Sequence record: PZ386953.1
DNA: 64,000 nucleotides
Source: a phage
Direction: 5' to 3' (one strand)
Position 1 is the first letter of the stretch; each line of letters starts with the position of its first letter. Made by a program: the position numbers and the translations under genes. Positions 1,857-64,000 of this stretch are shown here, in pieces. Under the pieces are notes generated by a model, which did no database searches, was not told the origin of the DNA, and saw only the letters and a list, made by a program, of their open reading frames with translations.

Positions 1857-1863
1857 CCAAATT

Positions 1864-1947
1864 GGGGAGTTATCCCGTAGAGGTAGCGGTGTAGACTGTA
1901 AATCTATTGTCATTGCGACTCGGGTGGTTCGACTCCACCACTCCCCA
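1864..1947 (+). tRNA. tRNA-Tyr (anticodon GTA), long variable arm
   Basis: Acceptor GGGGAGT/ACTCCCC perfect 7 bp, anticodon loop CTGTAAA, T-arm GGTGG-TTCGACT-CCACC, CCA encoded, 84 nt. Confidence 0.65.
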
Positions 1948-2064
1948 CCAAATTTATATTTTTAGATGCATAAATAATACAGATAATGGCATTGATATTT
2001 ATCGTCGTTTATACTAGTCACTAACTGCTCGAAAATCAGTGTCATTATCAGTATAATTTATAAA

Positions 2065-2152
2065 GGAGGGTAGGGAGCAATGGTGCTCAAGCGGTCTTGA
2101 AAACCGTCCCGTTGAGGATGACTCGATGATGGTTCGATTACATTACTCTCCG
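2065..2152 (+). tRNA. tRNA-Ser (anticodon TGA), long variable arm
   Basis: Acceptor GGAGGGT/ACTCTCC, D-stem GAGC/GCTC, anticodon stem-loop GCGGT-CTTGAAA-ACCGT, CCA encoded; T-stem has one mismatch. Confidence 0.55.
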
Positions 2153-2253
2153 CCACATTGTTGACCTTGTAATTAAGCGAAAGCCGGAAGCAGAACCGGA
2201 TTATCAAATGTTACAGTCGTCATCGCCGACTAGCAACATGGTCAACATACTGA

Positions 2254-2350
2254 GCTAGGTAAGCCCTTTGGCAAGGGCGAGGATTTTTAATCCTGAAAAT
2301 AGACGAGGTAGTCGTTGAATACATAGGTGGTTCGATTCCATCACCTAGCA
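2254..2350 (+). tRNA. tRNA-like element, atypical (97 nt; possible anticodon TTT)
   Basis: Perfect acceptor GCTAGGT/ACCTAGC, D-arm GCCC-TTTGGCAA-GGGC, canonical T-arm GGTGG-TTCGATT-CCATC, but a ~47-nt middle with only a 4-bp anticodon-like stem (loop TTTTTAA) and an extra hairpin; no encoded CCA. Confidence 0.4.
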
Positions 2351-2357
2351 CCTTTTT

Positions 2358-2430
2358 GCTGATGTAGCACAATCGGTAGTGCAATTGATTTGTAATCAAT
2401 AGGTTGTAGGTTCAAGTCCTGCCATCAGCA
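2358..2430 (+). tRNA. tRNA-Thr (anticodon TGT)
   Basis: Acceptor GCTGATG/CATCAGC perfect, anticodon stem-loop ATTGA-TTTGTAA-TCAAT, T-arm GTAGG-TTCAAGT-CCTGC, CCA encoded. Confidence 0.75.
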
Positions 2431-2434
2431 CCAA

Positions 2435-2507
2435 GGCCCTGTAGCTGGAAGGTTCAAGCAAGCGACTCATAATCGCCAGACGGTGGTTCAATTCCACCCA
2501 GGGCCAC
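2435..2507 (+). tRNA. tRNA-Met (anticodon CAT; initiator/elongator/Ile-lysidine not distinguished)
   Basis: Acceptor GGCCCTG/CAGGGCC perfect, anticodon loop CTCATAA, T-arm GGTGG-TTCAATT-CCACC, CCA encoded. Confidence 0.7.
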
Positions 2508-2520
2508 CAAATAATAAATA

Positions 2521-2594
2521 CTCCGCGTAGCTCAGCTTGGTAGAGCGCCTGATTTGGGATCAGGAGGTCGAGTGTTCGAATCACTCCGTGGAGA
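2521..2594 (+). tRNA. tRNA-Pro (anticodon TGG)
   Basis: Acceptor CTCCGCG/CGTGGAG, classic D-arm TAGCTCAGCTTGGTAGAGCG, anticodon stem-loop CCTGA-TTTGGGA-TCAGG, T-arm GAGTG-TTCGAAT-CACTC, CCA encoded. Confidence 0.75.
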
Positions 2595-2643
2595 CCACTT
2601 TCAGTTATACTTTAAACATATACAAACAAAAGGAACCTTTAAA

Positions 2644-3018: not shown

Positions 3019-3417
3019 ATGATTTCAGTTTTAACATGGCTGAGCAGGTATAGAGGGATCATAAAAGGTTTAGTTTTTGCAGCTGCGATAGGTACAGCTT
3101 ATCTTGGGTCCGTGTATTGGTTTAACTCTAAGCTTAATGATGCCTACCAAGAAGGTGTGTCAGCAACAGAGTTAAAGTGGGAACGGATCCTTGATCAGCA
3201 ACAAAAGCAGGCCGACAAAATTAAAATGGGCCACGCAGAGGAGGTTAAAAACCTTGAAAAATCCCTTTCTGATCTACAGGATAAATTAAATATGGCTGAG
3301 AAGGCAGGTAAAGAAAAGCAGATTATTTACCTCCAGTCACCTGAGGGTAAGAAGTCAACACTCCCTGATCAGCTTATAGATATTTATAATGAGAGTATTA
3401 ATCAGGAGGGTAGATGA
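3019..3417 (+). CDS. i-spanin-like protein (Rz-like)
   Basis: N-terminal hydrophobic helix GLVFAAAIGTAYLGSVYWF followed by charged coiled-coil region; GGAG SD; overlaps downstream lipoprotein gene by 4 nt. Confidence 0.5.
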   Translation: MISVLTWLSRYRGIIKGLVFAAAIGTAYLGSVYWFNSKLNDAYQEGVSATELKWERILDQQQKQADKIKMGHAEEVKNLEKSLSDLQDKLNMAEKAGKEKQIIYLQSPEGKKSTLPDQLIDIYNESINQEGR

Positions 3418-3701
3418 GAGTTGCTACACTGTTTATTGTGTGCTTGTTATTATGTGGGTGTGCAACCAGCGTTGAGAGAGAATACAAGATTGACCCTCCG
3501 GATGTAGGAAGGTTGATTGTTAAACCCCCGGAAGGTGCCATGAAACCACCTGCTAAAGCTATGCCTTTGAAGAAAGGTGCGCCAGATGCAGTGAATTCTG
3601 GCATTATGAGGGATAATAATCTGTCTTGTAGCAATGATAGAGCTAAATTGATCATTTTGCAAGACTATATTAGAACACTGTTTCCAAAGGAGAGAGGTTA
3701 A
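3414..3701 (+). CDS. o-spanin-like outer-membrane lipoprotein (Rz1-like)
   Basis: Signal peptide with lipobox-like LLCGC, proline-rich mature part, AGGAGGG SD; typical partner position after i-spanin. Confidence 0.5.
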   Translation: MRVATLFIVCLLLCGCATSVEREYKIDPPDVGRLIVKPPEGAMKPPAKAMPLKKGAPDAVNSGIMRDNNLSCSNDRAKLIILQDYIRTLFPKERG

Positions 3702-5248
3702 TGTCTAAGATTTACGGACCGTGTTCTGAAAAGCAGAAGATGATCCTAGAAAACGATGCAGATATTTTGGTAATCGGCGGTGCCGCAGGGTCTGGCAAGT
3801 CGTTCCTCTTGCAGTTGATGCCACTTAAAATTATTGATGACCCCCACAGCTCTGTGGTTATGTTCCGAAGAACAACCCCACAGTTGGAAGGTGAGGGTGG
3901 ACTATGGCCTAAAGCAGTAGCTATTTACAGTGATCTGCCTGAAAACATTAAGCCAAAGTTCAGAGAGAAGGATCATAAGTTCATTTTTCCACGGTTTGAT
4001 CCGAACACTGGTAAGTGGGATAGAAGCAAAAAGGGAGCTGTTGTAAAATACTGCCATATGGAGTATGTACAAGATAAGCTTAACCATCAGGGGCTTGAGT
4101 ACACCATGGTTTGCTTCGATGAGGGCACGCAGTTCGAATGGGAGCAGATAGACTATCTGATGTCTCGTCTGCGATCTCAGTCAAAGTATCCATCAAGAAT
4201 GGTTATCAGCTGTAACCCCGATTCAGAACACATGCTTGCCAAACTGGTTAGATGGTGGTTGGACGATGAAGGGTATCCAGATCCGGAGAAATGCGGTAAG
4301 AAAAGATATTTTATCCGACGCGACGGTGAATTTATCTGGGGAGACTCTAAAGAAGAGTTGATAGAGAAATACACCACGGTTAACGGACTTGGCGTAGAGA
4401 TCAAGCCAAGACCGTTGTCATTCTCGTTCATAGGCGCAACAATATTCGATAATCCTGTCTGTTTGAGAGACAACCCAGAATACCTTGCTTTCCTCGAAGG
4501 TCTACCAGAGCTGGAAAAAGCTCAGCTTCTCCATGGTAACTGGTTTGCAAAGCCTGAGGGTGCAAACTATTTTCAAAGATCTTTCCTTCGTGATGCCGAT
4601 AGAGTACCTCTTGGGTCAGTATCTTGCAGGGCATGGGATAAGGCAGGAACCGAGAGAACTTCCGGTAATAAATTTCCTGACTTTACTGCCAGTATTAAGG
4701 TAAGTAAAGATAGCGACGGCTTTTATTACCTGTCCGGTGATTATTGTCCTGAGAACGTGGATGACGGGAGGTATTCCACAGGTCTGGAAGGCAAGTTCTG
4801 TAAAAAGGCTGGTGAACGAGATGTGATCATCAGGAAACAGGCGCAGTTCGATGGTGATGATTGCATAATCGTCTTCTCTGTGGACCCAGGGCAGGCAGGT
4901 AAGAGTGAGTTCTTAACCTCCTCCAGATCCTTGCTTGCCGAAGGGTTCAGGGTTGAAGAAGACCCAATGCCTTCCAACAAGTCTAAACTGACAAGGTTCT
5001 CACCTTTTGCCAATCTTGCCCAACAAGGAATGGTGAGGATTGTAAAATCCAGTTTCCATCCTGATACTCTGGAAGCATTTCTGACTGAACTTGAAAAATT
5101 CAACGGGGAAAGATCAACATTTAACAGAAAAGACGACTGGGCCGACTGTGTAGCTTCTGCGATTAATTTCCTAGAGAAAGAGGAGGTAGCACTTCCTTGT
5201 GTGATTCCATCAATCTCATCACCTTCTATGTTCAAGCGTTTTATCTAA
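3701..5248 (+). CDS. terminase large subunit
   Basis: Walker A VIGGAAGSGKS, Walker B-like MVCFDEGTQF, ISCNP motif, C-terminal nuclease-sized domain; 515 aa. Confidence 0.85.
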   Translation: MSKIYGPCSEKQKMILENDADILVIGGAAGSGKSFLLQLMPLKIIDDPHSSVVMFRRTTPQLEGEGGLWPKAVAIYSDLPENIKPKFREKDHKFIFPRFDPNTGKWDRSKKGAVVKYCHMEYVQDKLNHQGLEYTMVCFDEGTQFEWEQIDYLMSRLRSQSKYPSRMVISCNPDSEHMLAKLVRWWLDDEGYPDPEKCGKKRYFIRRDGEFIWGDSKEELIEKYTTVNGLGVEIKPRPLSFSFIGATIFDNPVCLRDNPEYLAFLEGLPELEKAQLLHGNWFAKPEGANYFQRSFLRDADRVPLGSVSCRAWDKAGTERTSGNKFPDFTASIKVSKDSDGFYYLSGDYCPENVDDGRYSTGLEGKFCKKAGERDVIIRKQAQFDGDDCIIVFSVDPGQAGKSEFLTSSRSLLAEGFRVEEDPMPSNKSKLTRFSPFANLAQQGMVRIVKSSFHPDTLEAFLTELEKFNGERSTFNRKDDWADCVASAINFLEKEEVALPCVIPSISSPSMFKRFI

Positions 5249-49832: not shown

Positions 49833-50033
49833 TTAGTAATACTCCCAACATGCCCCATCTTCAGACGGCTTGACGCGCTTACCTTTATGGTCAACATAGG
49901 TATAGCCACAACCTTCACAAATAACAGGTGCTGCATAGCCTTCCTTCCACTGATCCTCAGTGATCAGACCTTCCAAATCTTTGCAGTCAAAGCCAAACAA
50001 CTCTTCAGAGCAATCTTTACAAAAATCAGCCAT
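49833..50033 (-). CDS. small zinc-ribbon-like protein
   Basis: 66 aa with two CxxC pairs (CKDC ... CEGC). Confidence 0.5.
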   Translation of the reverse strand: MADFCKDCSEELFGFDCKDLEGLITEDQWKEGYAAPVICEGCGYTYVDHKGKRVKPSEDGACWEYY

Positions 50034-50036
50034 TTC

Positions 50037-50501
50037 TCAGTCCTCGCATTTAACAAATTTTTCTATAGATCCACCAAGCACAGCTTGTTGTTTGATGGCA
50101 CTTTCTTCATCATAGTGGATAGACTTATGTTCCGTACCTCCAAACTTACCTGTGTGGAAGGTGTGCACCCAAATCTCTTTAGGAAGGTATTTATTCTCTT
50201 CCTCCACCAACTCCCACATACCCCACAAGTGATCTGTGATATCTCTGATGAAATATCCCTCGCCGAGGTTTGTATTCACACTGTAAGCTGATTCGTGATC
50301 TCCGCAAATATAACGGAAGGCAGTGTACTCTTTACCTGGTGTGAAGTGAGTATCCATTAGTATGGCTGTTAAAGAATAAGGGTCTCGAAAGCCCAAGAAC
50401 TTTAGTTTAACAATTTCGACATTTACATCTGCAAGATTATCCATGACGATCTCCTCTGTTTGGTTGGTGAGAATTATATATAGATCTGGTGGTGGTGTCA
50501 A
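50037..50501 (-). CDS. hypothetical protein (154 aa)
   Basis: Tightly packed in leftward operon; His-rich motifs but no assignable family. Confidence 0.5.
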   Translation of the reverse strand: MTPPPDLYIILTNQTEEIVMDNLADVNVEIVKLKFLGFRDPYSLTAILMDTHFTPGKEYTAFRYICGDHESAYSVNTNLGEGYFIRDITDHLWGMWELVEEENKYLPKEIWVHTFHTGKFGGTEHKSIHYDEESAIKQQAVLGGSIEKFVKCED

Positions 50502-50605
50502 GCTTAATTTTAAGAGATCTGAGAGGGTATTTTATTCAGGAAGGCAATCGCACAGGGTGGAGAAATTTATGAAGGAACAGGCCTCGTTTGAGGCCTTAAA
50601 TTCTA

Positions 50606-50986
50606 TTATGACACTTTGACATAGCGCTCTGACAAAGCTGGGAAGCCAAAAGTAGTGCCGATACTACCATAGGCTATCCACCATTGGAGTTCATCGTGAC
50701 ACCATTTTCCGATCAGGAAGGTGCTGGGATAGCGGGTCAGTATTTTGGCATAAGCTTTAGGATCTACATCTTCTGGGATAATGATGCTTGGAATATCTTT
50801 GTTATGACCACAGCAGCAGTTTAGCGTTTTCAAACCTGCTGCCCACAAACTCATGATAGGCTTAGCCATACACTTATCAAGGCACACACGTTTTTTGCCG
50901 TCACGAAGATTTTTAGGCACATCAACGATAACATTTGGATGCTTGGCACCTTTCACTTTCCAATTATAGGATTTACACTTGCACAT
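50606..50986 (-). CDS. cysteine-rich hypothetical protein
   Basis: 126 aa with CKC, CLDKC and NCCCGHN clusters suggesting metal binding. Confidence 0.5.
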   Translation of the reverse strand: MCKCKSYNWKVKGAKHPNVIVDVPKNLRDGKKRVCLDKCMAKPIMSLWAAGLKTLNCCCGHNKDIPSIIIPEDVDPKAYAKILTRYPSTFLIGKWCHDELQWWIAYGSIGTTFGFPALSERYVKVS

Positions 50987-51036
50987 TTAATCAGTCTCCG
51001 TCTAGAAAGCCGCACTATACGTTTTTGAGGTATACT

Positions 51037-51207
51037 TTACTTAAAGTCTTTATCACCTGCCACGATTGCATGAATCCACTCATTGTGATGCTCAATAGCG
51101 GTGAGATGTAACATGATGTAGTGATCGTCATTGCCAAACATGATATGATAGGCTTTGGCAGCATTTTGATATAACTTCCACATCAGGTAATGATATCTTC
51201 GCCTCAT
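51037..51207 (-). CDS. small His-rich hypothetical protein (56 aa, not in ORF track)
   Basis: Minus-strand ATG at 51207 preceded by GGAG; fills an otherwise empty gap in the operon. Confidence 0.3.
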   Translation of the reverse strand: MRRRYHYLMWKLYQNAAKAYHIMFGNDDHYIMLHLTAIEHHNEWIHAIVAGDKDFK

Positions 51208-51212
51208 GGCTC

Positions 51213-51683
51213 TTACTCCGGTTCAGGATCTGGGTAATCTTCAATAATAAAGGGCCATCCGTTCCGCTTAGCCTCAGACTTATACTCAATCTCCTTCATT
51301 GCAAACTCTAACTGATTCTTAGCCGGAATACATGCCGGAGAATCATCAATCCAGATATCTGGGTAGATATCAAACTGCGCCAGGTAGGCTGCCTTCTGAA
51401 CACCACCTGTGTAGAACACACCAACATCGAGCTCCTTGCGCCAATACTCAATGTCTACATTGTCTTGAGTAATGAATCGGAAAGTCACAAGGTAGACTGT
51501 CCACCCCTCCTTCTTCAGATCCCTGATCAGGCTGGAGAAGATGAAAGGGCTCGCATTAAACGTTCCATCAAAGTCGATGGCAATGATGTGCGTGCCGTGG
51601 CGAGTCTCATATGGATTGCTCGTGGTAAGATTGCTGTAATTAAAAGGGACTTCTTCCCCGCAGTAGCTGTAGTCCATATTCAC
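51213..51683 (-). CDS. HAD-superfamily phosphatase (5'-deoxyribonucleotidase-like)
   Basis: Motif I IIAIDFDGTF and motif IV IWIDDSP; AGAAGGTG SD; 156 aa. Confidence 0.6.
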   Translation of the reverse strand: MNMDYSYCGEEVPFNYSNLTTSNPYETRHGTHIIAIDFDGTFNASPFIFSSLIRDLKKEGWTVYLVTFRFITQDNVDIEYWRKELDVGVFYTGGVQKAAYLAQFDIYPDIWIDDSPACIPAKNQLEFAMKEIEYKSEAKRNGWPFIIEDYPDPEPE

Positions 51684-51955
51684 ACCTTCTCGTTGATAAA
51701 TTTACGGGCGGTTTGGTGAGTTGTTTCTGCTGTCTTCAGAATGATATTAATTTTATCGTCAAGATCATTCATCTCGGCAGTTAATTCAGGAATCTCTCCG
51801 GCATGCATGGTGAAATCATACATAGACATGCCCAAGATCTCATTGATGCGGCGGTTGCATTCTGCAGCACGCTGGTTCATTTTCCAAGCTAACACCAAAG
51901 CCTCCTGCGTAGCCTCTAGTGCAAAATCTAATACGTCGGCCTCTTCTTTCGTCAT
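51680..51955 (-). CDS. hypothetical protein (91 aa)
   Basis: Overlaps downstream HAD gene by 4 nt. Confidence 0.45.
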   Translation of the reverse strand: MTKEEADVLDFALEATQEALVLAWKMNQRAAECNRRINEILGMSMYDFTMHAGEIPELTAEMNDLDDKINIILKTAETTHQTARKFINEKV

Positions 51956-52012
51956 CTTAGTCTCTCCTGTTGTATTGTTGGTAGGTGTATGAATACCTTA
52001 TAACTCACCTTT

Positions 52013-52579
52013 TTATTCAAACTGCAATAGTAAGTCCACCACCGCGCTAGGTCTGTCAACAAATTCCCCAGGTCCACATGCCCACAGAGGGTATCCGTCT
52101 ACATACCGCCAAATCCAACCTGCAGTGTGGAGTTCGAGCAGGGCAGTACCGTCCTTACTGTCAACCACTCTTTCCCACAGTGTCGGGCAGCGAAGCTTGA
52201 GGATCGGATCCCCTCCCTTATACCCATCCATGTAGATACCCATTGCAAAGTTCAGCATCATCTTTTTGTGCACTGATCTTTTACTGAGGGTACTCATCAC
52301 TTCCTCTTTGTGAATGTTTGTAAGCTTCTCCTTGGCTACCCGCAGATCGTTGCAACCATTGTTCAGCAGATCTTCCAGACACTTGATCCGAAGGTCGTGA
52401 ATGTCTTTGTCGTGTACCGTTGGCACAGGGTCGTAGCGGTATAGCACTGTTGATACAAGGTTGCTCGGGTGTGGGTCTGACAGCAACCCATAACCCCAAT
52501 ACTCTTCTGTATCTGAAAGGACAAGACACCCAATGTCTCTGTCAAGCTTTCCTGTGTTGTAAGCCACATTGACCGCCAT
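52013..52579 (-). CDS. hypothetical protein (188 aa)
   Basis: ORF in leftward operon; no family recognised. Confidence 0.5.
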   Translation of the reverse strand: MAVNVAYNTGKLDRDIGCLVLSDTEEYWGYGLLSDPHPSNLVSTVLYRYDPVPTVHDKDIHDLRIKCLEDLLNNGCNDLRVAKEKLTNIHKEEVMSTLSKRSVHKKMMLNFAMGIYMDGYKGGDPILKLRCPTLWERVVDSKDGTALLELHTAGWIWRYVDGYPLWACGPGEFVDRPSAVVDLLLQFE

Positions 52580-52581
52580 GA

Positions 52582-52827
52582 CTATAGCTCCACTAGCAAA
52601 GTGCTTTCAAAGTGCCGTTCATGCAAACCGTTGTAAGGGACCACTTCTACAACGCCATCACGGACATATGGGGCCATCATGGTGGTATAATCTCCAAACG
52701 GGTTGGTATTGTCACTAACCACAACCACCTTCTGCCCTTCCTTGGCAGAGTGCCAAATAGATCTGCACTTCATCAGGTGTTCGAGAGCTCCAGGTAAAAT
52801 TTTGTTACGTTCTTTACGGGTCTTCAT
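52582..52827 (-). CDS. hypothetical protein (81 aa)
   Basis: ORF with 4-nt overlap to upstream gene. Confidence 0.45.
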   Translation of the reverse strand: MKTRKERNKILPGALEHLMKCRSIWHSAKEGQKVVVVSDNTNPFGDYTTMMAPYVRDGVVEVVPYNGLHERHFESTLLVEL

Positions 52828-53273
52828 AGCAGGTATAGCTCCTTATGAAAGTGATCTTTTAATTTCTCACTGAGAAACCTCTTGATACCTTCCTCTAAAG
52901 TGTTTTCGATGTAGTCCAGCTTAACTGCTTCGATGGACATATCATAGATTGCCAGCTCTAAGCTGTCAAGTCCCATCATAGCATGAACCATAAGATTTTC
53001 ATCTTCAGATACATTCAGGGGACTTCCTATAACATCTGGAGGCAGAATAGTTTCCCAATTATTCTGGGTGGTAGTTCTCCCGCCATCTACTTTACGGCGC
53101 AGTTCGAATGTGTTCTTAGTGTAGAACACTTCATAAGAAACGATACGACTGTCACTCTCATAATAAACGAAGTTCAGGTAGGAGCCTAGCCGCAGTCGGC
53201 AAACTTCCACCCCAAACCATTGTTTCTTATAAGAATTCAGGCTAATGCTGTCGCATTCACGTTTGCTCAACAC
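52824..53273 (-). CDS. hypothetical protein (149 aa)
   Basis: ORF in leftward operon. Confidence 0.5.
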   Translation of the reverse strand: MLSKRECDSISLNSYKKQWFGVEVCRLRLGSYLNFVYYESDSRIVSYEVFYTKNTFELRRKVDGGRTTTQNNWETILPPDVIGSPLNVSEDENLMVHAMMGLDSLELAIYDMSIEAVKLDYIENTLEEGIKRFLSEKLKDHFHKELYLL

Positions 53274-53289
53274 GGCTATCTCCTTTTTG

Positions 53290-53523
53290 TTAATCTTCGT
53301 AAATCAGGATTTCTGCTTTAGGTTTTCGTGCTTTCAGGTCCAGCTCTATCCAGTGCACCATAGCTGTTTCAAGAAAAACAGCTTGGATGCATCCGTCCTC
53401 AGCGTGCCCCACCAACATAACGAGATCTTCACCTTCGTCATCTGCATCACGAACATAAAGAATCTCTCCAGATTCGAAGTCTTTCACAACCTGATTGCTA
53501 GATAATTTTCTAATTTTTGCCAT
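53290..53523 (-). CDS. small protein, tandem paralogue D (77 aa)
   Basis: Shares G-E-(I/V)-(L/V) core and acidic patches with the three upstream ~87-aa paralogues. Confidence 0.5.
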   Translation of the reverse strand: MAKIRKLSSNQVVKDFESGEILYVRDADDEGEDLVMLVGHAEDGCIQAVFLETAMVHWIELDLKARKPKAEILIYED

Positions 53524-53524
53524 A

Positions 53525-53788
53525 TCAGAAACCCTCTAAAAAGCTCTTGTAGAAAACAATCTCAGTATCCACACCAGTCACAATCTTGTCGTTCCTGATT
53601 TCATCGGTAAGATAGGTGTCAAAACGCAGAACCTGTGTGGTGTTGTCACACATCCACTCAGCTGTGACCATTGCGAAAATCTTAGCATCTTCATTATCTG
53701 GTGTGAATGTTACCACCTCACCGCACTTAAACTTTTCGATAGGCTGAGTGTTAGCTTTCGGTTCTGCGATAGTGATTTTTGTGGTCAT
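53525..53788 (-). CDS. small protein, tandem paralogue C (87 aa)
   Basis: CGEVVTF and VTGVDTEIVF motifs parallel paralogues A/B. Confidence 0.5.
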   Translation of the reverse strand: MTTKITIAEPKANTQPIEKFKCGEVVTFTPDNEDAKIFAMVTAEWMCDNTTQVLRFDTYLTDEIRNDKIVTGVDTEIVFYKSFLEGF

Positions 53789-54051
53789 TATTCTCCTCCT
53801 TCTTTTGAATAGCTTGTCTCTCCAAGGATGGTAATTTTGGTGTCAAGCTCTGTAACTTTCATGTTTGGCGGCAGATCGTACAACTCATTATTTTCTAAAT
53901 CGAACCCCCACACACAATGTTCTCCTGTTTTGACAATCATAACTATGTTTTGAATGCCGTCTCCGTCGCAACTTACCACGGTCCCACACGGAAAACTGTC
54001 TGCACGCTTTTTGTTCTTCACCTTAGAATTGAATACAATGCTGGTAGCCAT
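53788..54051 (-). CDS. small protein, tandem paralogue B (87 aa)
   Basis: MAT start, GTVV, FDL, VTELD, ILGE motifs shared with paralogue A; start overlaps A's stop by 1 nt. Confidence 0.5.
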   Translation of the reverse strand: MATSIVFNSKVKNKKRADSFPCGTVVSCDGDGIQNIVMIVKTGEHCVWGFDLENNELYDLPPNMKVTELDTKITILGETSYSKEGGE

Positions 54052-54314
54052 TATTGTTCCTCCACCATAACTTCGCCAAGAATTTCTATGCAGGCATCCA
54101 TTTCTGTAACAACCAAACTGTGAGGCAGTTCTACAAACACCTTTCTGAACAGGTCAAATACCCCAACATATATGTTTGCAGGATGTGATTTTACAACAAG
54201 TGCTGTATTCACATCCCCAAGTTCATCAACAAACATCACCACAGTGCCTGGAGCTACTGAGGACAGATACTTCTTAGTTTTACGGTTTGATGCAAATTTT
54301 AACTCTGTTGCCAT
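54051..54314 (-). CDS. small protein, tandem paralogue A (87 aa)
   Basis: Strong AGAGGAGG SD; first of four coupled paralogous genes. Confidence 0.55.
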   Translation of the reverse strand: MATELKFASNRKTKKYLSSVAPGTVVMFVDELGDVNTALVVKSHPANIYVGVFDLFRKVFVELPHSLVVTEMDACIEILGEVMVEEQ

Positions 54315-54329
54315 AAATAACCTCCTCTC

Positions 54330-55811
54330 TTACTTAGCGTACTCGATTAATTCCACAGTTTTCCCAAAGCTCGGGATATAATTTTTATTATACCCCTCAG
54401 TGAGGACCCATAGAGTATCGTACTTTTTCCACTTGTTGTCAACAACCTTTTGTTCAAAGTTATGCTCAAAGTATAGGTCGGTCAGGACGATGACATCTTT
54501 TGCATTAGGTATGTTGGCATCCAGATACTCGAACACGCAAGCAGCTGTTGTGCCCCATGTTGAGTGGACCTCATAGTTGACCATCTCGTCTATGTTGCCG
54601 CGAGTGTATACTTTAACCTCTCCAACCTCAGTTGACCAACAGAACATTGTAACCTTAAACTCTTTATACAGATTGCACAATCCGGTGATTTCATTGAACA
54701 TTTTCTTTAAAGTTCTTTGAGAGATCGAGCCAGAAACGTCTAAAGCCACCACAATATCTATAGTGTTTTCCGGATTACGACCAGGAACAATAACGTGCTG
54801 GTTCTTGTTTATAGCCCCAACTTTTCGCATTGTGCTGGTCAAAGACCCAGATCGGCGACCAGGTTTTCTGTAGGTCAGTTCGGCCTTTCTTTTAGACAAC
54901 ATACGTTGCTTAATGATGTCTATATAGTTGATTACAGGCTTACCTCTGTTCTTGACAAACTCACGCACCGCCTCAGGGCAACGGCCTCCGGACGCTTGCA
55001 TTGCTGCCTCCAGCATATCACCAGAGTCCTGCATGGCCTGATCTTTATCAGATTGGCTGATTACAGGTTGTGGCTGATCATACCCCATAGCCTTTCCAAG
55101 ATTATCACTGGTGCCACCGTTCCCACTCATGTGATCATCGGTTTGTCGCTTATCACTTTGAGAGTTCTCACCTTTACCGTTCTTACTTTTACCGTTATTC
55201 TGATCTCTTTGCTTATCAAGAACTGCATAAACGTTCTCAGCAATCCATCCATGAAACTTCATGTCGCAGTAGCAGCTGGCTAAGAAGCCAAAAGGCTTAC
55301 CTTTCATGAACGTAGTGCTTTTCCCCTTCGGGAAGAAAACACAAGGAGGTTTGCTAAAGTCAACCACAAGGCCTGTGTTGATAACGTGATCACAAGCAAT
55401 ATTGAACAGTTCCGGCTCAAAGCTTTTACCACGGACTAGGTGATCACAGATAATATGCCCCACCTCATGTGACAGAAGGAAGGCCACCTCTTTCACAGAT
55501 TTTGGGGAATAGAAAACTTCAGCCATCTCAAACTGCTCGTCAGTTAGAGAAGCCTTAAGAATAGCCTTGCGTTCATCAGCCAATCCCATAATGAACTCAG
55601 GACTGTAATAGATGCGTTTATGGTCGGTTGCCATGGTGGAGCACCATGTGTGGTTTTCTACGAACTGCAACCCTGACAGTAGTGTGCCATAAAACGGCAA
55701 CTTTTCAAGGAGATACATACGTGCAGCCTGCAACATTCTCAGGGCATCATCTTTCTGCGAGGCAATGATTTCTGAACTTCTGCTATCCATTAAAACTCCA
55801 GGAGGGGCCAT
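54330..55811 (-). CDS. metallopeptidase-domain plus VWA-domain protein
   Basis: HExxH-type motif LLSHEVGHIICDH in N-terminal half; MIDAS-like VVALDVSGSIS in C-terminal half; 493 aa. Confidence 0.7.
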   Translation of the reverse strand: MAPPGVLMDSRSSEIIASQKDDALRMLQAARMYLLEKLPFYGTLLSGLQFVENHTWCSTMATDHKRIYYSPEFIMGLADERKAILKASLTDEQFEMAEVFYSPKSVKEVAFLLSHEVGHIICDHLVRGKSFEPELFNIACDHVINTGLVVDFSKPPCVFFPKGKSTTFMKGKPFGFLASCYCDMKFHGWIAENVYAVLDKQRDQNNGKSKNGKGENSQSDKRQTDDHMSGNGGTSDNLGKAMGYDQPQPVISQSDKDQAMQDSGDMLEAAMQASGGRCPEAVREFVKNRGKPVINYIDIIKQRMLSKRKAELTYRKPGRRSGSLTSTMRKVGAINKNQHVIVPGRNPENTIDIVVALDVSGSISQRTLKKMFNEITGLCNLYKEFKVTMFCWSTEVGEVKVYTRGNIDEMVNYEVHSTWGTTAACVFEYLDANIPNAKDVIVLTDLYFEHNFEQKVVDNKWKKYDTLWVLTEGYNKNYIPSFGKTVELIEYAK

Positions 55812-55823
55812 TGGCCCCTGTCA

Positions 55824-56864
55824 TTATTTAACGTGTTTGAAAATACCTGCCAACTCGGTCATTGTCATGCGGGTGGTCTTCATAAGATCTGTCATAGCTT
55901 TCTCCATAATTGGAGATACTACCATAAAGTTTCCTTTAGTGAAACCTTTATTCCAGTCGGTCACCAACAGGGGTTTAAGTCCAGCTCCAAGACGTTCACC
56001 AGTTAAAGCACAGCATTTGCGAATATACGAACTCTTAAATTGGCTGAACGACAGATCAACTTTCATACCTACATCGTAGAACGTTTGACAATAGAAAGTG
56101 TAAGCTTTGGCAATCTCAACATCATCAGGTAGTGCAGGAACCTCTTCTGTAAGCCCCTCTTCGACCTCCTGAGTCTCTTTTTCCTCTTCATGCACCTGTT
56201 GCGTCATTTCTTCAATCTCTTCTGTGATAGGCTCGTTTACAATGTCGGAAATGTGCTTCTTGGGTGCACGATAAGTAACTTTAGACATCGGTAGCATATC
56301 TTCCTCCTCTTCTTCGTCAAAGAGTGCTAGTTTATCCTCTTCCGTTCCATATTGCAAGATGAAATCTTCAAAAGTATAATCACCTTTCAATTTCTCCATA
56401 CGCTCTTCGCTCAGGTGGAGCATCATCTGCTGGACAATTTTTCGATCAGTTTCGTCTTTAATCAAGACTGCAGTCTTTTTATCTACCAGACAGTCCTTTA
56501 GAGAGTTGCATCTCAATCCCACCACACAACAGTTATCAACCGCATAAGGACCTTCATCATCTATCCGCTCCAGGGATGGGTAGAAAGGATTCCCCAGCCC
56601 GTTTTCATCTGTGTGCATGTCAAAAGGTATAAGGGTATAGTCGCATACTCCATCTCCTAAAAGTTTTTTACCAAATAGGAGGTATTCTTCCCATGACAGG
56701 TCGAACTCTATATCTCGTTTCCGTGCGTTATTCTGTTTGCGTCTATATTTTTTGAGCAAGCGCTCTAACTCTTCTGGTGTATAATATTTTTCAAGATTCA
56801 TGAGTCGTCTCTCGTGCTCTGTAAGTGAAGAAATCGTATCAATTGTCTCAACAGATGTCAACAT
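55824..56864 (-). CDS. protein with two tandem degenerate HNH/EndoVII-like domains and acidic linker
   Basis: N-terminal IEFDLSWEEY...CDYT...VDNCCVVGLRCNSLK and C-terminal VDLSFSQFKSSY...CCALT... are mutually similar; start taken at ATG 56864 (track uses TTG 56867). Confidence 0.5.
   Translation of the reverse strand: MLTSVETIDTISSLTEHERRLMNLEKYYTPEELERLLKKYRRKQNNARKRDIEFDLSWEEYLLFGKKLLGDGVCDYTLIPFDMHTDENGLGNPFYPSLERIDDEGPYAVDNCCVVGLRCNSLKDCLVDKKTAVLIKDETDRKIVQQMMLHLSEERMEKLKGDYTFEDFILQYGTEEDKLALFDEEEEEDMLPMSKVTYRAPKKHISDIVNEPITEEIEEMTQQVHEEEKETQEVEEGLTEEVPALPDDVEIAKAYTFYCQTFYDVGMKVDLSFSQFKSSYIRKCCALTGERLGAGLKPLLVTDWNKGFTKGNFMVVSPIMEKAMTDLMKTTRMTMTELAGIFKHVK
56265..56293 (-). repeat. 29-nt inverted-repeat arm 1
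   Basis: Reverse complement equals TACCGATGTCTAAAGTTACTTATCGTGCA, identical to 58127..58155; encodes internal LPMSKVTYRA preceded by GAGGAGGAAG. Confidence 0.85.
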
Positions 56865-56875
56865 CAAAAACGTGT

Positions 56876-56904
56876 TGACTTTACTCTAACTCCACAATAT
56901 AGTG
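56876..56904 (+). promoter_or_regulatory. sigma70-like promoter TTGACT-17-TATAGT for rightward operon
   Basis: -35 TTGACT 56876-56881, 17-nt spacer, -10 TATAGT 56899-56904, in the 76-nt divergent intergenic region. Confidence 0.5.
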
Positions 56905-56943
56905 CACCCATTCGAAAGAAAACTAACATAGGAGCACTTACTT

Positions 56944-57843
56944 ATGGCAAATCTTAACAGTTTTAGTACGCGGTGGAAACAGGACATAACAACCAATCTT
57001 TCAGCTGGGGACATCCTTTCTGCAATTTACGAGGCTTTAGATGATAAAGCTACTTCAAAAGCGGTTTGTACCAACCCATTAATTCCTATAGTGATGAAGG
57101 TTATTGAGCGTAGATTGGTATCTGGGTCTGATAAGTGGACATATTTAGATAATGAAGGACACACCTATTCCAATGGGTATGTCGATATAAAAGTAGAATA
57201 CGCGGTATCATACCGCCGGAGCGGTTCTGTAACTTTCAACTTCTCTGGAGGTTTTCGATCTCTGGCTACCTCACCTTTTGTTTCCTCGGAGGAGAAGTAT
57301 GAGCTGCCATTTCTTTGGATGATGGCTAACGCGACAGGAAAAACCCCCGTTAGCATCCGAGTAAAATACAACTACAACGGATCTAGTAAGATCTATGCCG
57401 AAAGTGTCTCAGCAAGTTTTTATTTTGTGATGGGGGATGGAATCCTCAAACATATAAAGATGTGCGATATGCATGATGTTATAAATGAAGTGACTGATAA
57501 GAATGTTCTAGTGAAAGACCTCAACAATTTTTATACACCTGGAGACTATTACGTCAGCCGTCCACTGTGCATCTTTAATGCCGCACACCCTCTAGGTGAG
57601 TATTTGATCGCCAATAGCGATATTGCCAATAACCGCTTCGAGGTAGCAAGAGTTCAGAATGAGGTATTGACATCTTGCAAGAGCGGTGATAAGTTTACCG
57701 AAGAAGAGATGGGTGTTTTAGAAATGATGGGATATAAGTGTAGCCTTTGGGTAGATGAGGTGTTTAATGATTGCATCTATGGACAGGATATTTACCCATT
57801 AAAGAAGTATACTGATACAAGTTTAATTTATGCGAGGGTTTGA
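56944..57843 (+). CDS. hypothetical protein (299 aa)
   Basis: First gene of rightward operon, AGGAG SD. Confidence 0.5.
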   Translation: MANLNSFSTRWKQDITTNLSAGDILSAIYEALDDKATSKAVCTNPLIPIVMKVIERRLVSGSDKWTYLDNEGHTYSNGYVDIKVEYAVSYRRSGSVTFNFSGGFRSLATSPFVSSEEKYELPFLWMMANATGKTPVSIRVKYNYNGSSKIYAESVSASFYFVMGDGILKHIKMCDMHDVINEVTDKNVLVKDLNNFYTPGDYYVSRPLCIFNAAHPLGEYLIANSDIANNRFEVARVQNEVLTSCKSGDKFTEEEMGVLEMMGYKCSLWVDEVFNDCIYGQDIYPLKKYTDTSLIYARV

Positions 57844-58747: not shown

Positions 58748-59128
58748 ATGGCTCAGTGGAAGACAACAGTTGACCTTCATGATCAGTGGTTAGGACGCAT
58801 CACTGAAGACGGGAAGCTAGTGGAGTGGGACAATAAGCATGTTAGCGAGTTGGCAAGTATTGTGGCTGGCAAGTTACGCTCCAAGTTCCCTGAACAACTG
58901 GATCCTGATAGTTCAAAGTTCGATCCTGAGTTAGAGGATGTTGTATACTACTTCGACACCGTTGATGACTACGACGCGTGGTTTGCAGCACGGGAGCTTT
59001 ACCCACAAGGCTCTGCTATGCGCCAGATGGAAGAAGATTATCCTCCGTGTGAGCAATTCAATAGTGCAATGACTTGCCTCTATGATTGGGCAGATAAGAA
59101 CCTTGTCTGGATTCGGACTGCATTTTAG
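58748..59128 (+). CDS. hypothetical protein (126 aa)
   Basis: ORF 2 nt after the upstream stop. Confidence 0.45.
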   Translation: MAQWKTTVDLHDQWLGRITEDGKLVEWDNKHVSELASIVAGKLRSKFPEQLDPDSSKFDPELEDVVYYFDTVDDYDAWFAARELYPQGSAMRQMEEDYPPCEQFNSAMTCLYDWADKNLVWIRTAF

Positions 59129-59172
59129 TGGGCAGGAATGGCGGCAAGGATGCTGCTTAAGGAGTAGTAGAG

Positions 59173-59442
59173 ATGTTATACCAGCAATATGAACTTCGTG
59201 CAGAAAAAGAGTTAAATTTTGACAAAGATATTCACAGATATTATTATGGGAAAGTTAGAGGGCAAGCAAGAAAGTGTACTCCAACACTCTTTTATGCCAG
59301 CAGACGACTAGCGCCAGAAGAGGCAACAGCAGAAAGGGTTGCGTACAACTGGAGAGTCACGTATGATATTGACAGATTCGATGTGATATCTGTTTTGGAA
59401 AACTTTGAAAACACTTACACACAAGTAGAGGACTTTTACTAA
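59173..59442 (+). CDS. hypothetical protein (89 aa)
   Basis: AAGGAG SD. Confidence 0.45.
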   Translation: MLYQQYELRAEKELNFDKDIHRYYYGKVRGQARKCTPTLFYASRRLAPEEATAERVAYNWRVTYDIDRFDVISVLENFENTYTQVEDFY

Positions 59443-60626
59443 TGTCAAGAAACGTATTCGAAAGTGGTCAAATCACTGTCCGTGAGTTGCCAGCTATTAT
59501 TCAGTTTGCCCAACGTCATAGCCGATCTGTCCTAATTTTGGGACCAATGGGTGTGGGTAAAAGCCAGGTGATGAAGCAGATCGCTGATAATATGTTCGGT
59601 GAGCGAGATGACAACCTTGTTGACGTGCGACTGTCAGATAAAGATCCTGCCGACTTATCTGGGCTACCTATCCCTGTAGAAGCGGATGGAACTACACGTA
59701 CAGTGTTTGCAATTCCAGAATTTTGGCCTGCGAATCCTGACTGGAGCGGAATTATCTTTCTGGATGAGCTCACTCATGCAGATAACTACCTGCAAAAGGT
59801 TGCAATGCAAATTATGCTTGACCACAAGTGCGGCACCTATGCATTCCCTAAGGGCTCTGTTTTTGTGGCTGCGGGTAACCGTTCTACAGATGGTGCGGTT
59901 CTTTCGGCGCTCGAAGCCCCTCTGGCTAACCGTTTTATCATTGTAGAGGTTACAAGCAATGCAGAGGTGTTTATTGAGGACTACGCATTCCTCAACGGGG
60001 TTCACTCCTCTGTAATTGGGTATCTGAAAAGAGTTCCATCAGCTATTGATAATTATGAGGCTATGGCTGAGATTAATTGTCCATCTTTTGCCACACCACG
60101 ATCTTGGGTTGCTGCATCTGACATCTTGCACGATTTTGACAGCGGTATTATTTCTGACGCTATGGCCCGTGTTCTTCTGCAAGGTGCTATTGGTCACACT
60201 GCAGCGGTAGAGATCTGGACTTACCACACCAAGAAACGTAATTTACCGGAAATCGGTCGGATTATGGCAGGTGGCTGCAAAGAATATGTAGGTCCTAAGC
60301 AGCCAGACATTTTGTGGATTCTTGGATCTGAAGGTTGTATCGCTATTCGCAATATGATGGAAAATGCAAGTATCTCAGACGAAGATCTTGTCAGCTGCGT
60401 GGCAAACTTCCTCGATTTCCTTTGGGAAAACTTCAAGGACGAGAACCGAGATTTTGTATTCTCAGTCTTTATGGCGATGATGAAACCTAATGCCTTAGGA
60501 AATGCCTTGCTTATCGGTAAAGGGCGTGACAAGATTGTTGCTCAGCTGATCAAAGCATACCCAAACCTGATGAAGATTGTAAAAGAGTTTGGTGAAGAGT
60601 TTAGCGCCATTTTGGCTAAAGCTTAA
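59442..60626 (+). CDS. MoxR/CbbQ-type AAA+ ATPase
   Basis: Walker A LILGPMGVGKSQ, Walker B IIFLDELTHA, sensor-1-like VAAGN, Arg-finger-like ANRF; 394 aa. Confidence 0.75.
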   Translation: MSRNVFESGQITVRELPAIIQFAQRHSRSVLILGPMGVGKSQVMKQIADNMFGERDDNLVDVRLSDKDPADLSGLPIPVEADGTTRTVFAIPEFWPANPDWSGIIFLDELTHADNYLQKVAMQIMLDHKCGTYAFPKGSVFVAAGNRSTDGAVLSALEAPLANRFIIVEVTSNAEVFIEDYAFLNGVHSSVIGYLKRVPSAIDNYEAMAEINCPSFATPRSWVAASDILHDFDSGIISDAMARVLLQGAIGHTAAVEIWTYHTKKRNLPEIGRIMAGGCKEYVGPKQPDILWILGSEGCIAIRNMMENASISDEDLVSCVANFLDFLWENFKDENRDFVFSVFMAMMKPNALGNALLIGKGRDKIVAQLIKAYPNLMKIVKEFGEEFSAILAKA

Positions 60627-60636
60627 GGGGGGTTGT

Positions 60637-61017
60637 ATGGCTAAAGTAGGTAAGCGGGGAAACTACCTGGTGGTATTGACCGAGGAGCCGGAGAAGGAGT
60701 ACGAATGCAGCTCCACTTGCGTGATCGATATCCGAGAAAAAGATGTAGATGAAGTCTGGTTTAAAATATTGGACGCTTGCGATAGCAGTGATTATTTCTT
60801 CATTTATGTCAACGATAAGGCTGGATTCTTCCATGACGACGGAGAGTTGCCGTATGAAATCTATGAACTTGTAGAGGCTTGCCATCGTGGAGATGCGGAG
60901 TTGTTTGGCCTACGGCTGAAAAGCGGTAAATTCTTCTATCAAGATGAGTGCATGAATCTTCATAACTTTGTAGAGGGAACTTGCAACGATGGAGAGATTT
61001 TGGCACACTACGATTAA
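60637..61017 (+). CDS. hypothetical protein (126 aa)
   Basis: ATG 60637 with AAGGGGGG SD; track ORF starts at upstream in-frame ATG 60589 overlapping the ATPase gene. Confidence 0.45.
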   Translation: MAKVGKRGNYLVVLTEEPEKEYECSSTCVIDIREKDVDEVWFKILDACDSSDYFFIYVNDKAGFFHDDGELPYEIYELVEACHRGDAELFGLRLKSGKFFYQDECMNLHNFVEGTCNDGEILAHYD

Positions 61018-61028
61018 TTTCTAAGACC

Positions 61029-61057
61029 TCCCCCGCTTCGGCGGGGATTTTCTATTT
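61029..61057 (+). terminator. intrinsic terminator
   Basis: CCCCGC-TTCG-GCGGGG hairpin followed by ATTTTCTATTT. Confidence 0.6.
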
Positions 61058-61066
61058 GGAGTCATT

Positions 61067-61567
61067 GTGAAAATTAAGATCTTTGCTATTATTTTGAGCG
61101 CACTTTTATCGCTGCCTGTTGTTGCAGCACCAAAACAAAAAGTATATCATACTTGCAAGCCATCAGATACTAAGGAAAACATTCTGGCATGCAATATCTA
61201 CAGGGAAGCTAGAGGAGATGGCACGATGGGTATGCTGGCATCTGGGTTTGCCACACTAAACAGGAAATCCCACCCTAAATACCCAGACACTATAAGAAAG
61301 ATTGTCTACCAACCTAACCAGTTTTCGTGGACAAACCACGGCAAAACTTTTAAGGTGACAGAAAAAGATTCATGGGATCACGCTAAAAGTCTTGCAAAGA
61401 TGCTTCTAAAGGTCTATAATAACAACCATGTTGCATACATGGCTATGGACATAACAGGTGGAGCAACACACTACCATACAACCAAAGTACGACCGAAATG
61501 GGCAAAAAAGATGCAGAGGACAGCTCAATTCGGGAGCCATATCTACTACAAGGAGCGCAATAAATGA
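61067..61567 (+). CDS. secreted SleB-like cell-wall hydrolase (candidate endolysin)
   Basis: N-terminal signal-peptide-like MKIKIFAIILSALLSLPVVAAP; motifs NIYREARGDG, ASGFATLNRK, VYQPNQFSW, GSHIYY resemble SleB-family hydrolases (from memory); GTG start with GGAG SD. Confidence 0.7.
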   Translation: MKIKIFAIILSALLSLPVVAAPKQKVYHTCKPSDTKENILACNIYREARGDGTMGMLASGFATLNRKSHPKYPDTIRKIVYQPNQFSWTNHGKTFKVTEKDSWDHAKSLAKMLLKVYNNNHVAYMAMDITGGATHYHTTKVRPKWAKKMQRTAQFGSHIYYKERNK

Positions 61568-63546
61568 TTGTAAACAGTAATGAAACTAAAGCAGTGCTGA
61601 CCGGAAATATGGAGGTCACCAGGGGCTCAATTTCTCTGAACAAAGAGACTTTTGGGCTAATCATTAAAGGGATTTACGAAGATAAGGTGCTGGCAAGCTG
61701 CCGTGAACCAATCTTCAATGCTGTGGACTCCCATGTTGAGTCTGGACGGGGTGATGTACCGATCATCATTCACTCTCCTACAGACCTTGAACCATACTTC
61801 TTTGTGCAGGACGTTGGATTGGGCATGTCAGAAGAGATGGTCCGCAACACTTTCATGAATCTCGGGGAGTCAACCAAGCGCAACAGCAACGCTCTGGTAG
61901 GTAATAAAGGTGTTGGTTCAAAGGCTCCGTTCAGTATGGTGGACACTTTCGATGTTATCAGTGTGCACAATGGTGTTGAAAGCACATATCTATTGTTCTT
62001 GGATCAGGGTATCCCAAACGTTACCAAGATCCGTGAGCGGAAGACTGAAGAGCACAACGGGGTAAAAGTTCAGTTCCATGTTAAGAAAGAGCATGTCCTG
62101 AAATATCGCACTGCTATTGCATCGTGCTTACGCTATGCGAAGTTTCCGTTCATCGTCACCGATCCTATGACCAGTAAGATGTTAGAAGGTGACAAGGTTG
62201 AGGCACAGTATCATTACGAGAAGGATGGCTGGAAAATGACCATCCTGAAAGGTTATACCAGTTCTGATGAGAGCCGTGTTGTGATGGGTCACCAACCTTA
62301 CCGCTCCAAGTTCCTGGAGACATTGACCGATTACCCTGCAATCTGCGTGGAAATTCCTATTGGGGATTGCAATATTAACCCTGGGCGTGAATGGACCATA
62401 GAGGGCCATGACGACGGTGGATTCCAGGATCGCCTGGAGGCCTTTGTCAAAGAAGGTATACGTCTTCGCGGGGCAGAAGTTATTGCAGAACTGGAGACGG
62501 CAAAAACCTCCGCAGAAGCACGTGAAATGATGAAGAATAGTGGAGTGTTCGGACACATCTTCGGCAAAAACTTTATGTGGAACCGTTGGGAAGAAACAGG
62601 GCTTGGCGACTTAGGCGATTGTGAAATTTTCGCTGGCGGCTTAAATAAAGGCCGCATAGGCTATGCTCGTTACGGAAAGTCGGAGTTCTTACGAGGTGTA
62701 TACCTTGTATTTAACGACGGAGATGGTAAATATAACCGAAATAAGTGTAACTACTTAAGCGAAATCACCGGACGCAACGTTTTCTATTGCCGGAACACGG
62801 ATCTGGTGAAAGAGTTTAAAGAGGCGGCACACCATCCGTTCTTTGCAGATACTGTCAAATTGTTATCAGAGCTCCCTCGCCGACCTGCGAAGAAAGGTGA
62901 AACAAAAACTCATTACGAGCCAGGTTATTGGGTTAAAAAGCTTGAGAAGGATGGTTACTTCCGTCGTGAACGTATTACTAAGGCAGAGTTCAAGAAGATT
63001 AAGCACTGCATTCCTTATGAGGGTGATATCCAACGTGGAAGTTGTTGGCTGGGACAGCTGAGTAACATCTACCAGCAAAATTATGACCGTGTGCGTGCTG
63101 CACTCCAGATTCCTGAAGGTGAAGATCTGTACTTGGTATCAGAATCTCGTCTGCTTTGGACTGATCCTGATTGCCAGTATGTTACAGAGAAGAATGTGGA
63201 ACACTTGTTGAAAGAGGATGCTTGGAAATTCTTACTGACTCGCGCAGCAAATGAAACTTCATATGACAGCTTGTATAGACAATTAGGGAAAATTATCCCC
63301 ATGCAGGATTTTGGAAATTATCGGCCACATTTCCACAAGTGGGAAGGTAACACCGCGTGGAAGCACAGTGAGCTAAATCATCGTGCCAAAATCTTAATCG
63401 CCAACCGGGTTAAGTGCGGGAAGGCCTATATTGCAAGATTGGAAAAGAAATATCCACTTTTGAAGCATGTGGGCTTGAAATATTGGGACACCCCTGCTAT
63501 GATTGAATACCGTGAGCTGATCGATACAAAGAATAACATCAAATAA
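61564..63546 (+). CDS. GHKL-family ATPase (Hsp90/MORC-like Bergerat fold) with large uncharacterised C-terminal region
   Basis: N-box-like IFNAVDS, G1 box VQDVGLGMS, G2 box GNKGVGSKAPF in first ~130 aa; 660 aa; AAGGAG SD. Confidence 0.55.
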   Translation: MIVNSNETKAVLTGNMEVTRGSISLNKETFGLIIKGIYEDKVLASCREPIFNAVDSHVESGRGDVPIIIHSPTDLEPYFFVQDVGLGMSEEMVRNTFMNLGESTKRNSNALVGNKGVGSKAPFSMVDTFDVISVHNGVESTYLLFLDQGIPNVTKIRERKTEEHNGVKVQFHVKKEHVLKYRTAIASCLRYAKFPFIVTDPMTSKMLEGDKVEAQYHYEKDGWKMTILKGYTSSDESRVVMGHQPYRSKFLETLTDYPAICVEIPIGDCNINPGREWTIEGHDDGGFQDRLEAFVKEGIRLRGAEVIAELETAKTSAEAREMMKNSGVFGHIFGKNFMWNRWEETGLGDLGDCEIFAGGLNKGRIGYARYGKSEFLRGVYLVFNDGDGKYNRNKCNYLSEITGRNVFYCRNTDLVKEFKEAAHHPFFADTVKLLSELPRRPAKKGETKTHYEPGYWVKKLEKDGYFRRERITKAEFKKIKHCIPYEGDIQRGSCWLGQLSNIYQQNYDRVRAALQIPEGEDLYLVSESRLLWTDPDCQYVTEKNVEHLLKEDAWKFLLTRAANETSYDSLYRQLGKIIPMQDFGNYRPHFHKWEGNTAWKHSELNHRAKILIANRVKCGKAYIARLEKKYPLLKHVGLKYWDTPAMIEYRELIDTKNNIK

Positions 63547-63556
63547 GGAGACCAAG

Positions 63557-64000
63557 ATGATTTTCATCTACGAACATTTCAAAACCCGTAAAGAAGCACG
63601 AGACCGCCGTGCAGAACTTGAGAAGAAGGGTTTCACATGTGCCGTTGAGAAAGGCGACACAACCTGGACACTGGCAGTTGGTGCCCCAGAGTTGTTCGAT
63701 CCTGACCGTGACAGCGTCTGCTACACCCGTGAGGATTTTGAAACCCGCGAAGAGGCCCGTTTATTTCGATACGGTCTGGAAGATAACGGTAAGTACGCTA
63801 TGATCTTAGATTTAGGCGAAGGTTCCGTTAAACGTTGGGGCGTGGTATACCCACTGTGTGTTGTTCACGGTGTGGGGTTCACTGGGGTGGCAATCAAGTC
63901 AGAAGAACCTTTAGTAGAAGTCAAAGATCCGGTGCTGGAGGTGGTGAGCAGTGTGTCTCAGCAACAGACTCGAAACATCGAGCCTTTGGTGGTTATTTGT
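63557..64000 (+). CDS. hypothetical protein, 3'-truncated at window edge
   Basis: ATG 63557 with AAGGAG SD; frame open to the end of the window; track lists only an alternative-frame ORF 63609..63803. Confidence 0.45.
   Translation, partial: MIFIYEHFKTRKEARDRRAELEKKGFTCAVEKGDTTWTLAVGAPELFDPDRDSVCYTREDFETREEARLFRYGLEDNGKYAMILDLGEGSVKRWGVVYPLCVVHGVGFTGVAIKSEEPLVEVKDPVLEVVSSVSQQQTRNIEPLVVIC

Follow-up and report, generated by a model that had tools for sequence, protein, structure and literature searches.

The rII locus of a Vequintavirus coliphage encodes an rIIA protein with an intact GHL-type ATPase module

A stretch of 64,000 nt from the phage sequence record PZ386953.1 (in the following, the window) ends with three plus-strand genes within positions 61067..64000. 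They encode a protein of 166 amino acids (aa), a protein of 660 aa, and a third product that is truncated at the window end. We identify the 660 aa protein as rIIA and the gene that follows it as rIIB. Together they very probably represent the rII locus of a Vequintavirus, an accessory counter-defence module directed against lambda RexAB. An earlier note, made from the sequence alone, had described the 660 aa protein as a GHKL ATPase with a core closer to Hsp90 and MORC than to topoisomerases, and knew of no described role for such a protein in tailed phages. This interpretation is partly supported, as it was right on the fold and wrong on the novelty.

Identification of rIIA and rIIB

The window originates from an rV5-like coliphage of the genus Vequintavirus. 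Its positions 59000..64000 share 99.8% identity with Escherichia phage EdH4, and over the same interval 122 phage records reach an identity of 90% or more. When the 660 aa protein was compared with the PHROG profiles it matched phrog_612, ‘RIIA lysis inhibitor’, with residues 1–658 aligning to positions 1–724 of 725 (E = 1.8e-124). T4 rIIA matches the same PHROG (E = 1.8e-251). The protein is covered over its full length by this family. It is identical to EdH4_00063 (QBO61345.1) at 660 of 660 residues and to Bas54 rIIA at 653 of 660. Near-identical genes in rV5_ev146, Bas54/MaxBurger, Bas55, ime, PMBT16 and others carry rIIA-type annotations, which read rIIA, ‘membrane integrity protector rIIA’ or ‘RIIA protector from prophage-induced early lysis’, whereas the EdH4 GenBank record names its rIIA ‘hypothetical protein’. 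Nothing of substance sets the window rIIA apart from the RIIA proteins of EdH4, rV5, APECc02 and Bas54/MaxBurger.

In direct comparison with T4 rIIA, BLASTP aligned residues 1–190 at 28% identity (E = 3e-21) and hhalign aligned residues 1–326 with a probability of 99.3% (E = 2.4e-20). Like the window gene, T4 rIIA adjoins rIIB and has a counter-defence role towards Rex. The T4 protein has 725 aa, making the window protein 65 residues shorter, and the C-terminal halves of the two are related only at the level of predicted structure. The genes also differ in their upstream neighbour, which is the topoisomerase II region in T4 and a SleB-type hydrolase gene in the window.

The start codon of rIIB lies 10 nt past the TAA of rIIA, and a GGAG overlaps the rIIA stop. 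The part of rIIB present in the window is identical to EdH4 at 147 of 148 residues. A full 401 aa orthologue from a related contig (L001:8558-9763) matches phrog_609 RIIB (E = 4.4e-60), and PF26926 (Phage_T4_rIIB) was found in the genes of relatives at the rIIB position. In phage RB43 the two proteins occur as a natural RIIA-RIIB fusion (Q56C47, 1049 aa), whereas in the window they are encoded by separate genes. This fusion supports A and B acting as one unit.

Three further observations concern these genes. First, rIIB of the rV5 type has an N-terminal extension of ~130 aa outside the RIIB PHROG match (seen in 63557..64000 and in L001:8558-9763). It gave a marginal Pfam SPOR match at residues 8–42 (22.3 bits, cut-off 21), and by eye it shows two beta-alpha-beta-like repeats without a signal peptide. 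Second, a relative at 67% rIIA identity has an extra gene between rIIA and rIIB that encodes 124 aa and has no Pfam match (L008:5982-6356), so that rIIA and rIIB need not be direct neighbours. Third, the 1055-position ‘RIIB’ profile phrog_609 also matches the N-terminal GHKL domain of rIIA, both in the window protein (E = 1.2e-23) and in T4 (E = 1.2e-60). The likely reason is that the profile contains natural RIIA-RIIB fusions such as that of RB43, and such matches can mislead automatic annotation.

Domain architecture of rIIA

The N-terminal part of rIIA contains the GHKL motifs in order: E48-P-I-F-N52-A-V-D55 (ExxxNxxD), D83-V-G-L-G-M88 (DxGxG) and G113-N-K-G-V-G-S-K120 (GxxGxG). Their counterparts in T4 rIIA are ELITNMID, DFGPGM and GGFGLGSK. 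The Pfam family HATPase_c_3 (PF13589) was detected at residues 50–147 (35 bits, cut-off 25; E = 1.7e-8). Across 26 homologues, reaching down to ~20% identity, the residues R47, E48, N52, D55, D83, G85, G87, S103, T104, K105, G113, G116, G118 and G166 are invariant. In an AlphaFold2 model, residues ~26–190 have predicted local distance difference test scores mostly above 85. This confirms the Bergerat/GHKL core that the earlier note had recognised in open reading frame 61564..63546, and the motifs persist on alignment.

The remaining ~500 aa, which the note had left unassigned, consist of a transducer-like GHL domain at residues ~191–325 and a rIIA-specific region at residues 326–660. A loop of the second domain, IPIGDCxxNPGREW, carries the invariant residues R275 and E276. 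The loop is shared with T4 rIIA, where the P-x-R-E pattern recurs (IPIGDCNINPGREW in the window, FPMGSLDIAPSREA in T4). The combination of a Bergerat fold with a second, transducer-like domain defines the GHL subgroup, and residues 1–325 of rIIA comprise both.

As to the proposed closeness of the core to Hsp90 and MORC, the sequence profiles lean towards the MutL/MORC/Hsp90/sacsin side, because PF13589 was the sole Pfam family above threshold; hints of sacsin, HSP90 and TRAP1 were weak. The predicted structure does not single out the closest GHL branch for residues 1–325. A sequence search of the PDB with rIIA gave nothing significant; a match to TRAP1 (E = 0.1) involved the N-terminal domain only, and a match to topoisomerase 3-beta over a 54-residue stretch (E = 0.06) was taken as chance.

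Compared with the GHL modules of Hsp90/TRAP1, MutL, MORC/SMCHD1 and GyrB/ParE/topoisomerase II/topoisomerase VI-B, rIIA has an identity of 8–16%. It lacks their Toprim, Hsp90 middle/C-terminal and MutL C-terminal endonuclease domains and apparently also the CW/coiled-coil domains. Such domains bear on the question, raised in the earlier note, of whether the 660 aa protein could supply the GyrB-like ATPase activity of a type II topoisomerase encoded by the phage, as its ATPase subunit. We searched the protein for a Toprim domain after the transducer and for GyrB-type Pfam domains, and both were absent. Since no trace of Toprim is present, the protein is not a topoisomerase, and we consider this assignment practically excluded.

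Under another reading, the protein would be a chaperone or DNA clamp resembling Hsp90 or MORC that is new to tailed phages and has no link to a phage function characterised before. NCBIfam did return sacsin, HSP90 and BbrUII restriction enzyme matches, but all were far below their cut-offs and confined to the ATPase module. The protein does not belong to the Hsp90 family, having no Pfam HSP90 match and scoring 17.7 bits for the NCBIfam entry ‘HSP90 family protein’, whose cut-off is 455. Instead it belongs to the rIIA family over its full length, it is identical to the protein of EdH4, in which experiments on the rIIA homologue have been made, and the GHKL plus C-terminal architecture of rIIA is already in the literature. 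We regard the chaperone or clamp reading as highly improbable, and the assignment to rIIA stops a false ‘new phage Hsp90/MORC’ lead.

The C-terminal half is without a relative among solved structures. When residues 326–660 were searched against BFVD with Foldseek, nearly all named matches at E ≤ 0.01 were RIIA proteins (E = 3.1e-8 to 7.8e-3), and the RIIA part of the RB43 fusion matched this half structurally (E = 7.5e-8).

Probable counter-defence role and proposed mechanism

Knock-down of RIIA and RIIB in T4, MM02, EdH4, SUSP1 and N4 caused no defect without Rex and lowered the plating efficiency on lambda RexAB hosts (PMC11879866). The Rex dependence of rII in T4 is also borne out by a transposon study, and the RIIB protein of T6 triggers a bacterial gasdermin/CARD defence system. 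Both rIIA and rIIB are present in rV5 (PMC7344957), and an rIIA architecture of ‘N-terminal GHKL ATPase plus variable C-terminal domain’ has been published, with a reference to the MORC family paper. The rIIA/rIIB counter-defence locus is thus already known and every element of our finding has been described earlier. As rIIA and rIIB are among the oldest known phage loci, the locus adds little as a discovery. A PADLOC analysis gave nothing meaningful.

Several points weigh against assigning the window locus to this counter-defence role. Homology to T4 rIIA was detected by BLASTP and hhalign for residues 1–326 only, so that the relation of the C-terminal half to T4 escapes sequence methods, and the Foldseek matches of this half have low TM-scores (0.2–0.36). 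We found no solved structure of any rIIA. Older biochemical literature describes T4 rIIA as membrane-associated. For the window protein this property is taken from T4, and its hydropathy profile shows no hydrophobic segment (Kyte-Doolittle 19-residue maximum 0.83). Literature searches for ATP binding or hydrolysis by rIIA, or for its structure, yielded nothing relevant, the results being swamped by papers on Fc-gamma-RIIA. Finally, we infer that the EdH4 RIIA targeted by knock-down is EdH4_00063, because that study (PMC11879866) used sequence searches to locate the homologues, and genomes of relatives have a single rIIA match.

We propose the following mechanism. RexAB, an abortive-infection system of lambda, would depolarise the membrane and halt infection, and rIIA and rIIB would let the phage grow on RexAB hosts. 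Judged from its motifs, rIIA may bind and hydrolyse ATP with E48 as the general base, N52 as a Mg ligand, D83 as the adenine contact and the segment 103–120 as a glycine-rich ATP lid. Sensing of the gamma-phosphate may fall to the second domain with its invariant R275/E276 loop. Like other GHL ATPases, rIIA could then operate as an ATP-driven dimerising switch, a part of the mechanism that is argued by analogy and to which we give even chances. At the inner membrane, the switch would act by way of rIIB and the C-terminal half peculiar to rIIA, and it may block or reverse a Rex-type trigger or channel there and so prevent depolarisation of the RexAB type. In the models, the intact two-domain GHL module, the R275/E276 loop and the C-terminal half offer concrete targets for mutagenesis.

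The upstream SleB-type hydrolase

The gene preceding rIIA encodes a protein with the Pfam domain Hydrolase_2/SleB (PF07486) at residues 51–161 (70.4 bits, cut-off 27; E = 2.1e-19). It also matches phrog_938 endolysin (E = 1.6e-27), and with TIGR02869 SleB it scores 48 bits, below the equivalog cut-off of 236. The catalytic domain is shared with the SleB/CwlJ spore-cortex lytic enzymes of Bacillus; in contrast to Bacillus SleB, the phage hydrolase lacks the N-terminal peptidoglycan-binding domain and has a signal-like N-terminus. This N-terminus is hydrophobic (MKIKIFAIILSALLSLPVVAA; Kyte-Doolittle 19-residue maximum 2.34) and is composed of a basic start, a 17-residue hydrophobic stretch and VAA, a pattern that recurs in four relatives and was judged without a dedicated signal-peptide predictor. 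The hydrolase is identical to its EdH4 and Bas54 orthologues at 166 of 166 residues. A SleB-like hydrolase with a signal peptide is kept in all Vequintavirinae genera; a signal peptide was reported for the homologue CB7_83, and a homologue in phage CR3 is implicated in lysis and toxic upon expression (PMC7344957).

The TGA of the hydrolase gene overlaps the ATG of rIIA in the sequence ATGA at 61564–61567, and an AAGGAG is located 6 nt 5′ of this ATG. The earlier note had seen rIIA as translationally coupled on both sides. On the upstream side we find the overlap and the SleB-type domain, with an N-terminus that is signal-like by its hydrophobicity, while the downstream gene is present and closely spaced without overlapping rIIA.

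Five relatives were sampled to follow this arrangement. In four of them (67%, 41%, 40% and 34% rIIA identity) rIIA is preceded, either immediately or with one gene in between, by a Hydrolase_2 gene whose product has a signal-like N-terminus; the fifth (53%) has no such gene beside rIIA. Among the hydrolase-bearing relatives, the 4 nt overlap is found solely in the one at 67% rIIA identity, the closest, and the more distant ones have gaps of 33–407 nt. Downstream genes for a PIF1-like helicase and DnaB are also kept in the synteny block of the relatives. In the contig at 34% rIIA identity, an IS605 OrfB/TnpB (Cas12f-like) gene is inserted just 5′ of the Hydrolase_2-rIIA-rIIB block (L009:1321-2580).

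Historically, rII mutants were isolated as rapid-lysis mutants. This, together with the ATGA overlap, the position of the hydrolase gene down to 34% rIIA identity and the lytic, toxic homologue, could suggest that the rII proteins of Vequintavirinae work mainly with the co-transcribed, exported SleB-type hydrolase as regulators of lysis timing, with Rex counter-defence as a by-product; they would stabilise the membrane and thereby prevent premature activation of the lysin. Such a role would be compatible with the counter-defence assignment, but we consider it improbable. The hydrolase is absent beside rIIA in one of the relatives, T4 and most other phages with rIIA have no such hydrolase, and the gaps in distant relatives show that coupling is not conserved. 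Certrevirus phages keep the hydrolase without rIIA or rIIB (PMC7344957). Since the PIF1-like helicase and DnaB genes are kept as well, the gene order may simply be inherited, which is the simpler explanation of the hydrolase placement. It is likewise quite improbable that the conserved, and here coupled, placement in Vequintavirinae and their relatives reflects a functional link in which rII maintains membrane energisation and thereby holds back a lysin that has already been exported; if true, such a link would join the historic rapid-lysis and Rex phenotypes in one mechanism. We favour rIIA and rIIB as a counter-defence module; the hydrolase most likely stands outside the rII mechanism and merely shares a conserved block of early genes with it.

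Layout of the locus and other features of the window

The features of the locus are listed in Table 1. The genes around rIIA are the same as in EdH4 and Bas54, in the order MoxR-like ATPase, 126 aa open reading frame, SleB-like hydrolase, rIIA and rIIB. A terminator-like hairpin separates the hydrolase gene from the gene preceding it, and a putative terminator is annotated at the corresponding position in EdH4. The hairpin was the sole noteworthy site in a promoter and terminator scan, in which sites were no more numerous than in shuffled sequence and the hydrolase-rIIA-rIIB unit could not be assigned a promoter.

Table 1. Positions of the rII genes, the rIIA domains and adjoining elements in the window.
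Feature	Position	Strand	Basis
Terminator-like GC hairpin, CCCCGC-TTCG-GCGGGG plus T-run	61031..61046	+	6/6 GC pairs; predicted
SleB/CwlJ-type cell-wall hydrolase, 166 aa, signal-peptide-like N-terminus	61067..61567	+	PF07486; GTG start
rIIA, whole gene including stop	61564..63546	+	ATG start, 660 aa; phrog_612 RIIA
Bergerat (GHKL) ATP-binding domain, rIIA residues ~26–190, motifs I–III and G166	61639..62133	+	PF13589, motifs, invariant residues
Second, transducer-like domain and helical linker, rIIA residues ~191–325	62134..62538	+	Invariant Y246, R275, E276
rIIA-specific C-terminal region, residues 326–660	62539..63543	+	No relative among solved structures
rIIB, N-terminal 148 codons, truncated at window end	63557..64000	+	Full orthologue phrog_609; PF26926 in relatives

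The MoxR-like AAA ATPase gene lies three genes upstream of rIIA (59442..60626, plus strand; phrog_1297, E = 3.7e-110). Its product is identical at 393 of 394 residues to the Bas54 orthologue bas54_0063, which is reportedly required against DS-28, a predicted defence system in E. coli CFE311. Because of this report, the rII neighbourhood resembles a counter-defence region.

A block of minus-strand genes at ~50000..57000 (for example 54330..55811 and 55824..56867) adjoins the early block on the rII side and has an inverted GC skew. At the matching position, one relative has a minus-strand gene with DUF2201 domains, and in rV5_ev146 the neighbouring gene is annotated ‘anti-sigma factor’.

At the other end of the window, ARAGORN called a cluster of seven tRNAs on the plus strand (1785..2597; Arg, Tyr, Ser, Thr, Met, Pro). 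An odd call of 99 nt at 2254..2352 was given no amino acid, and its anticodon, ‘atcc’, has four bases. A spanin-like gene pair (3019..3701, plus strand) is located immediately 5′ of a large-terminase-like gene (3701..5248), with no adjoining endolysin or holin gene. The pair encodes a 132 aa protein with an N-terminal membrane anchor and an overlapping 95 aa protein with the lipobox LLLCGC, an arrangement that agrees with published remarks on rV5-like phages.

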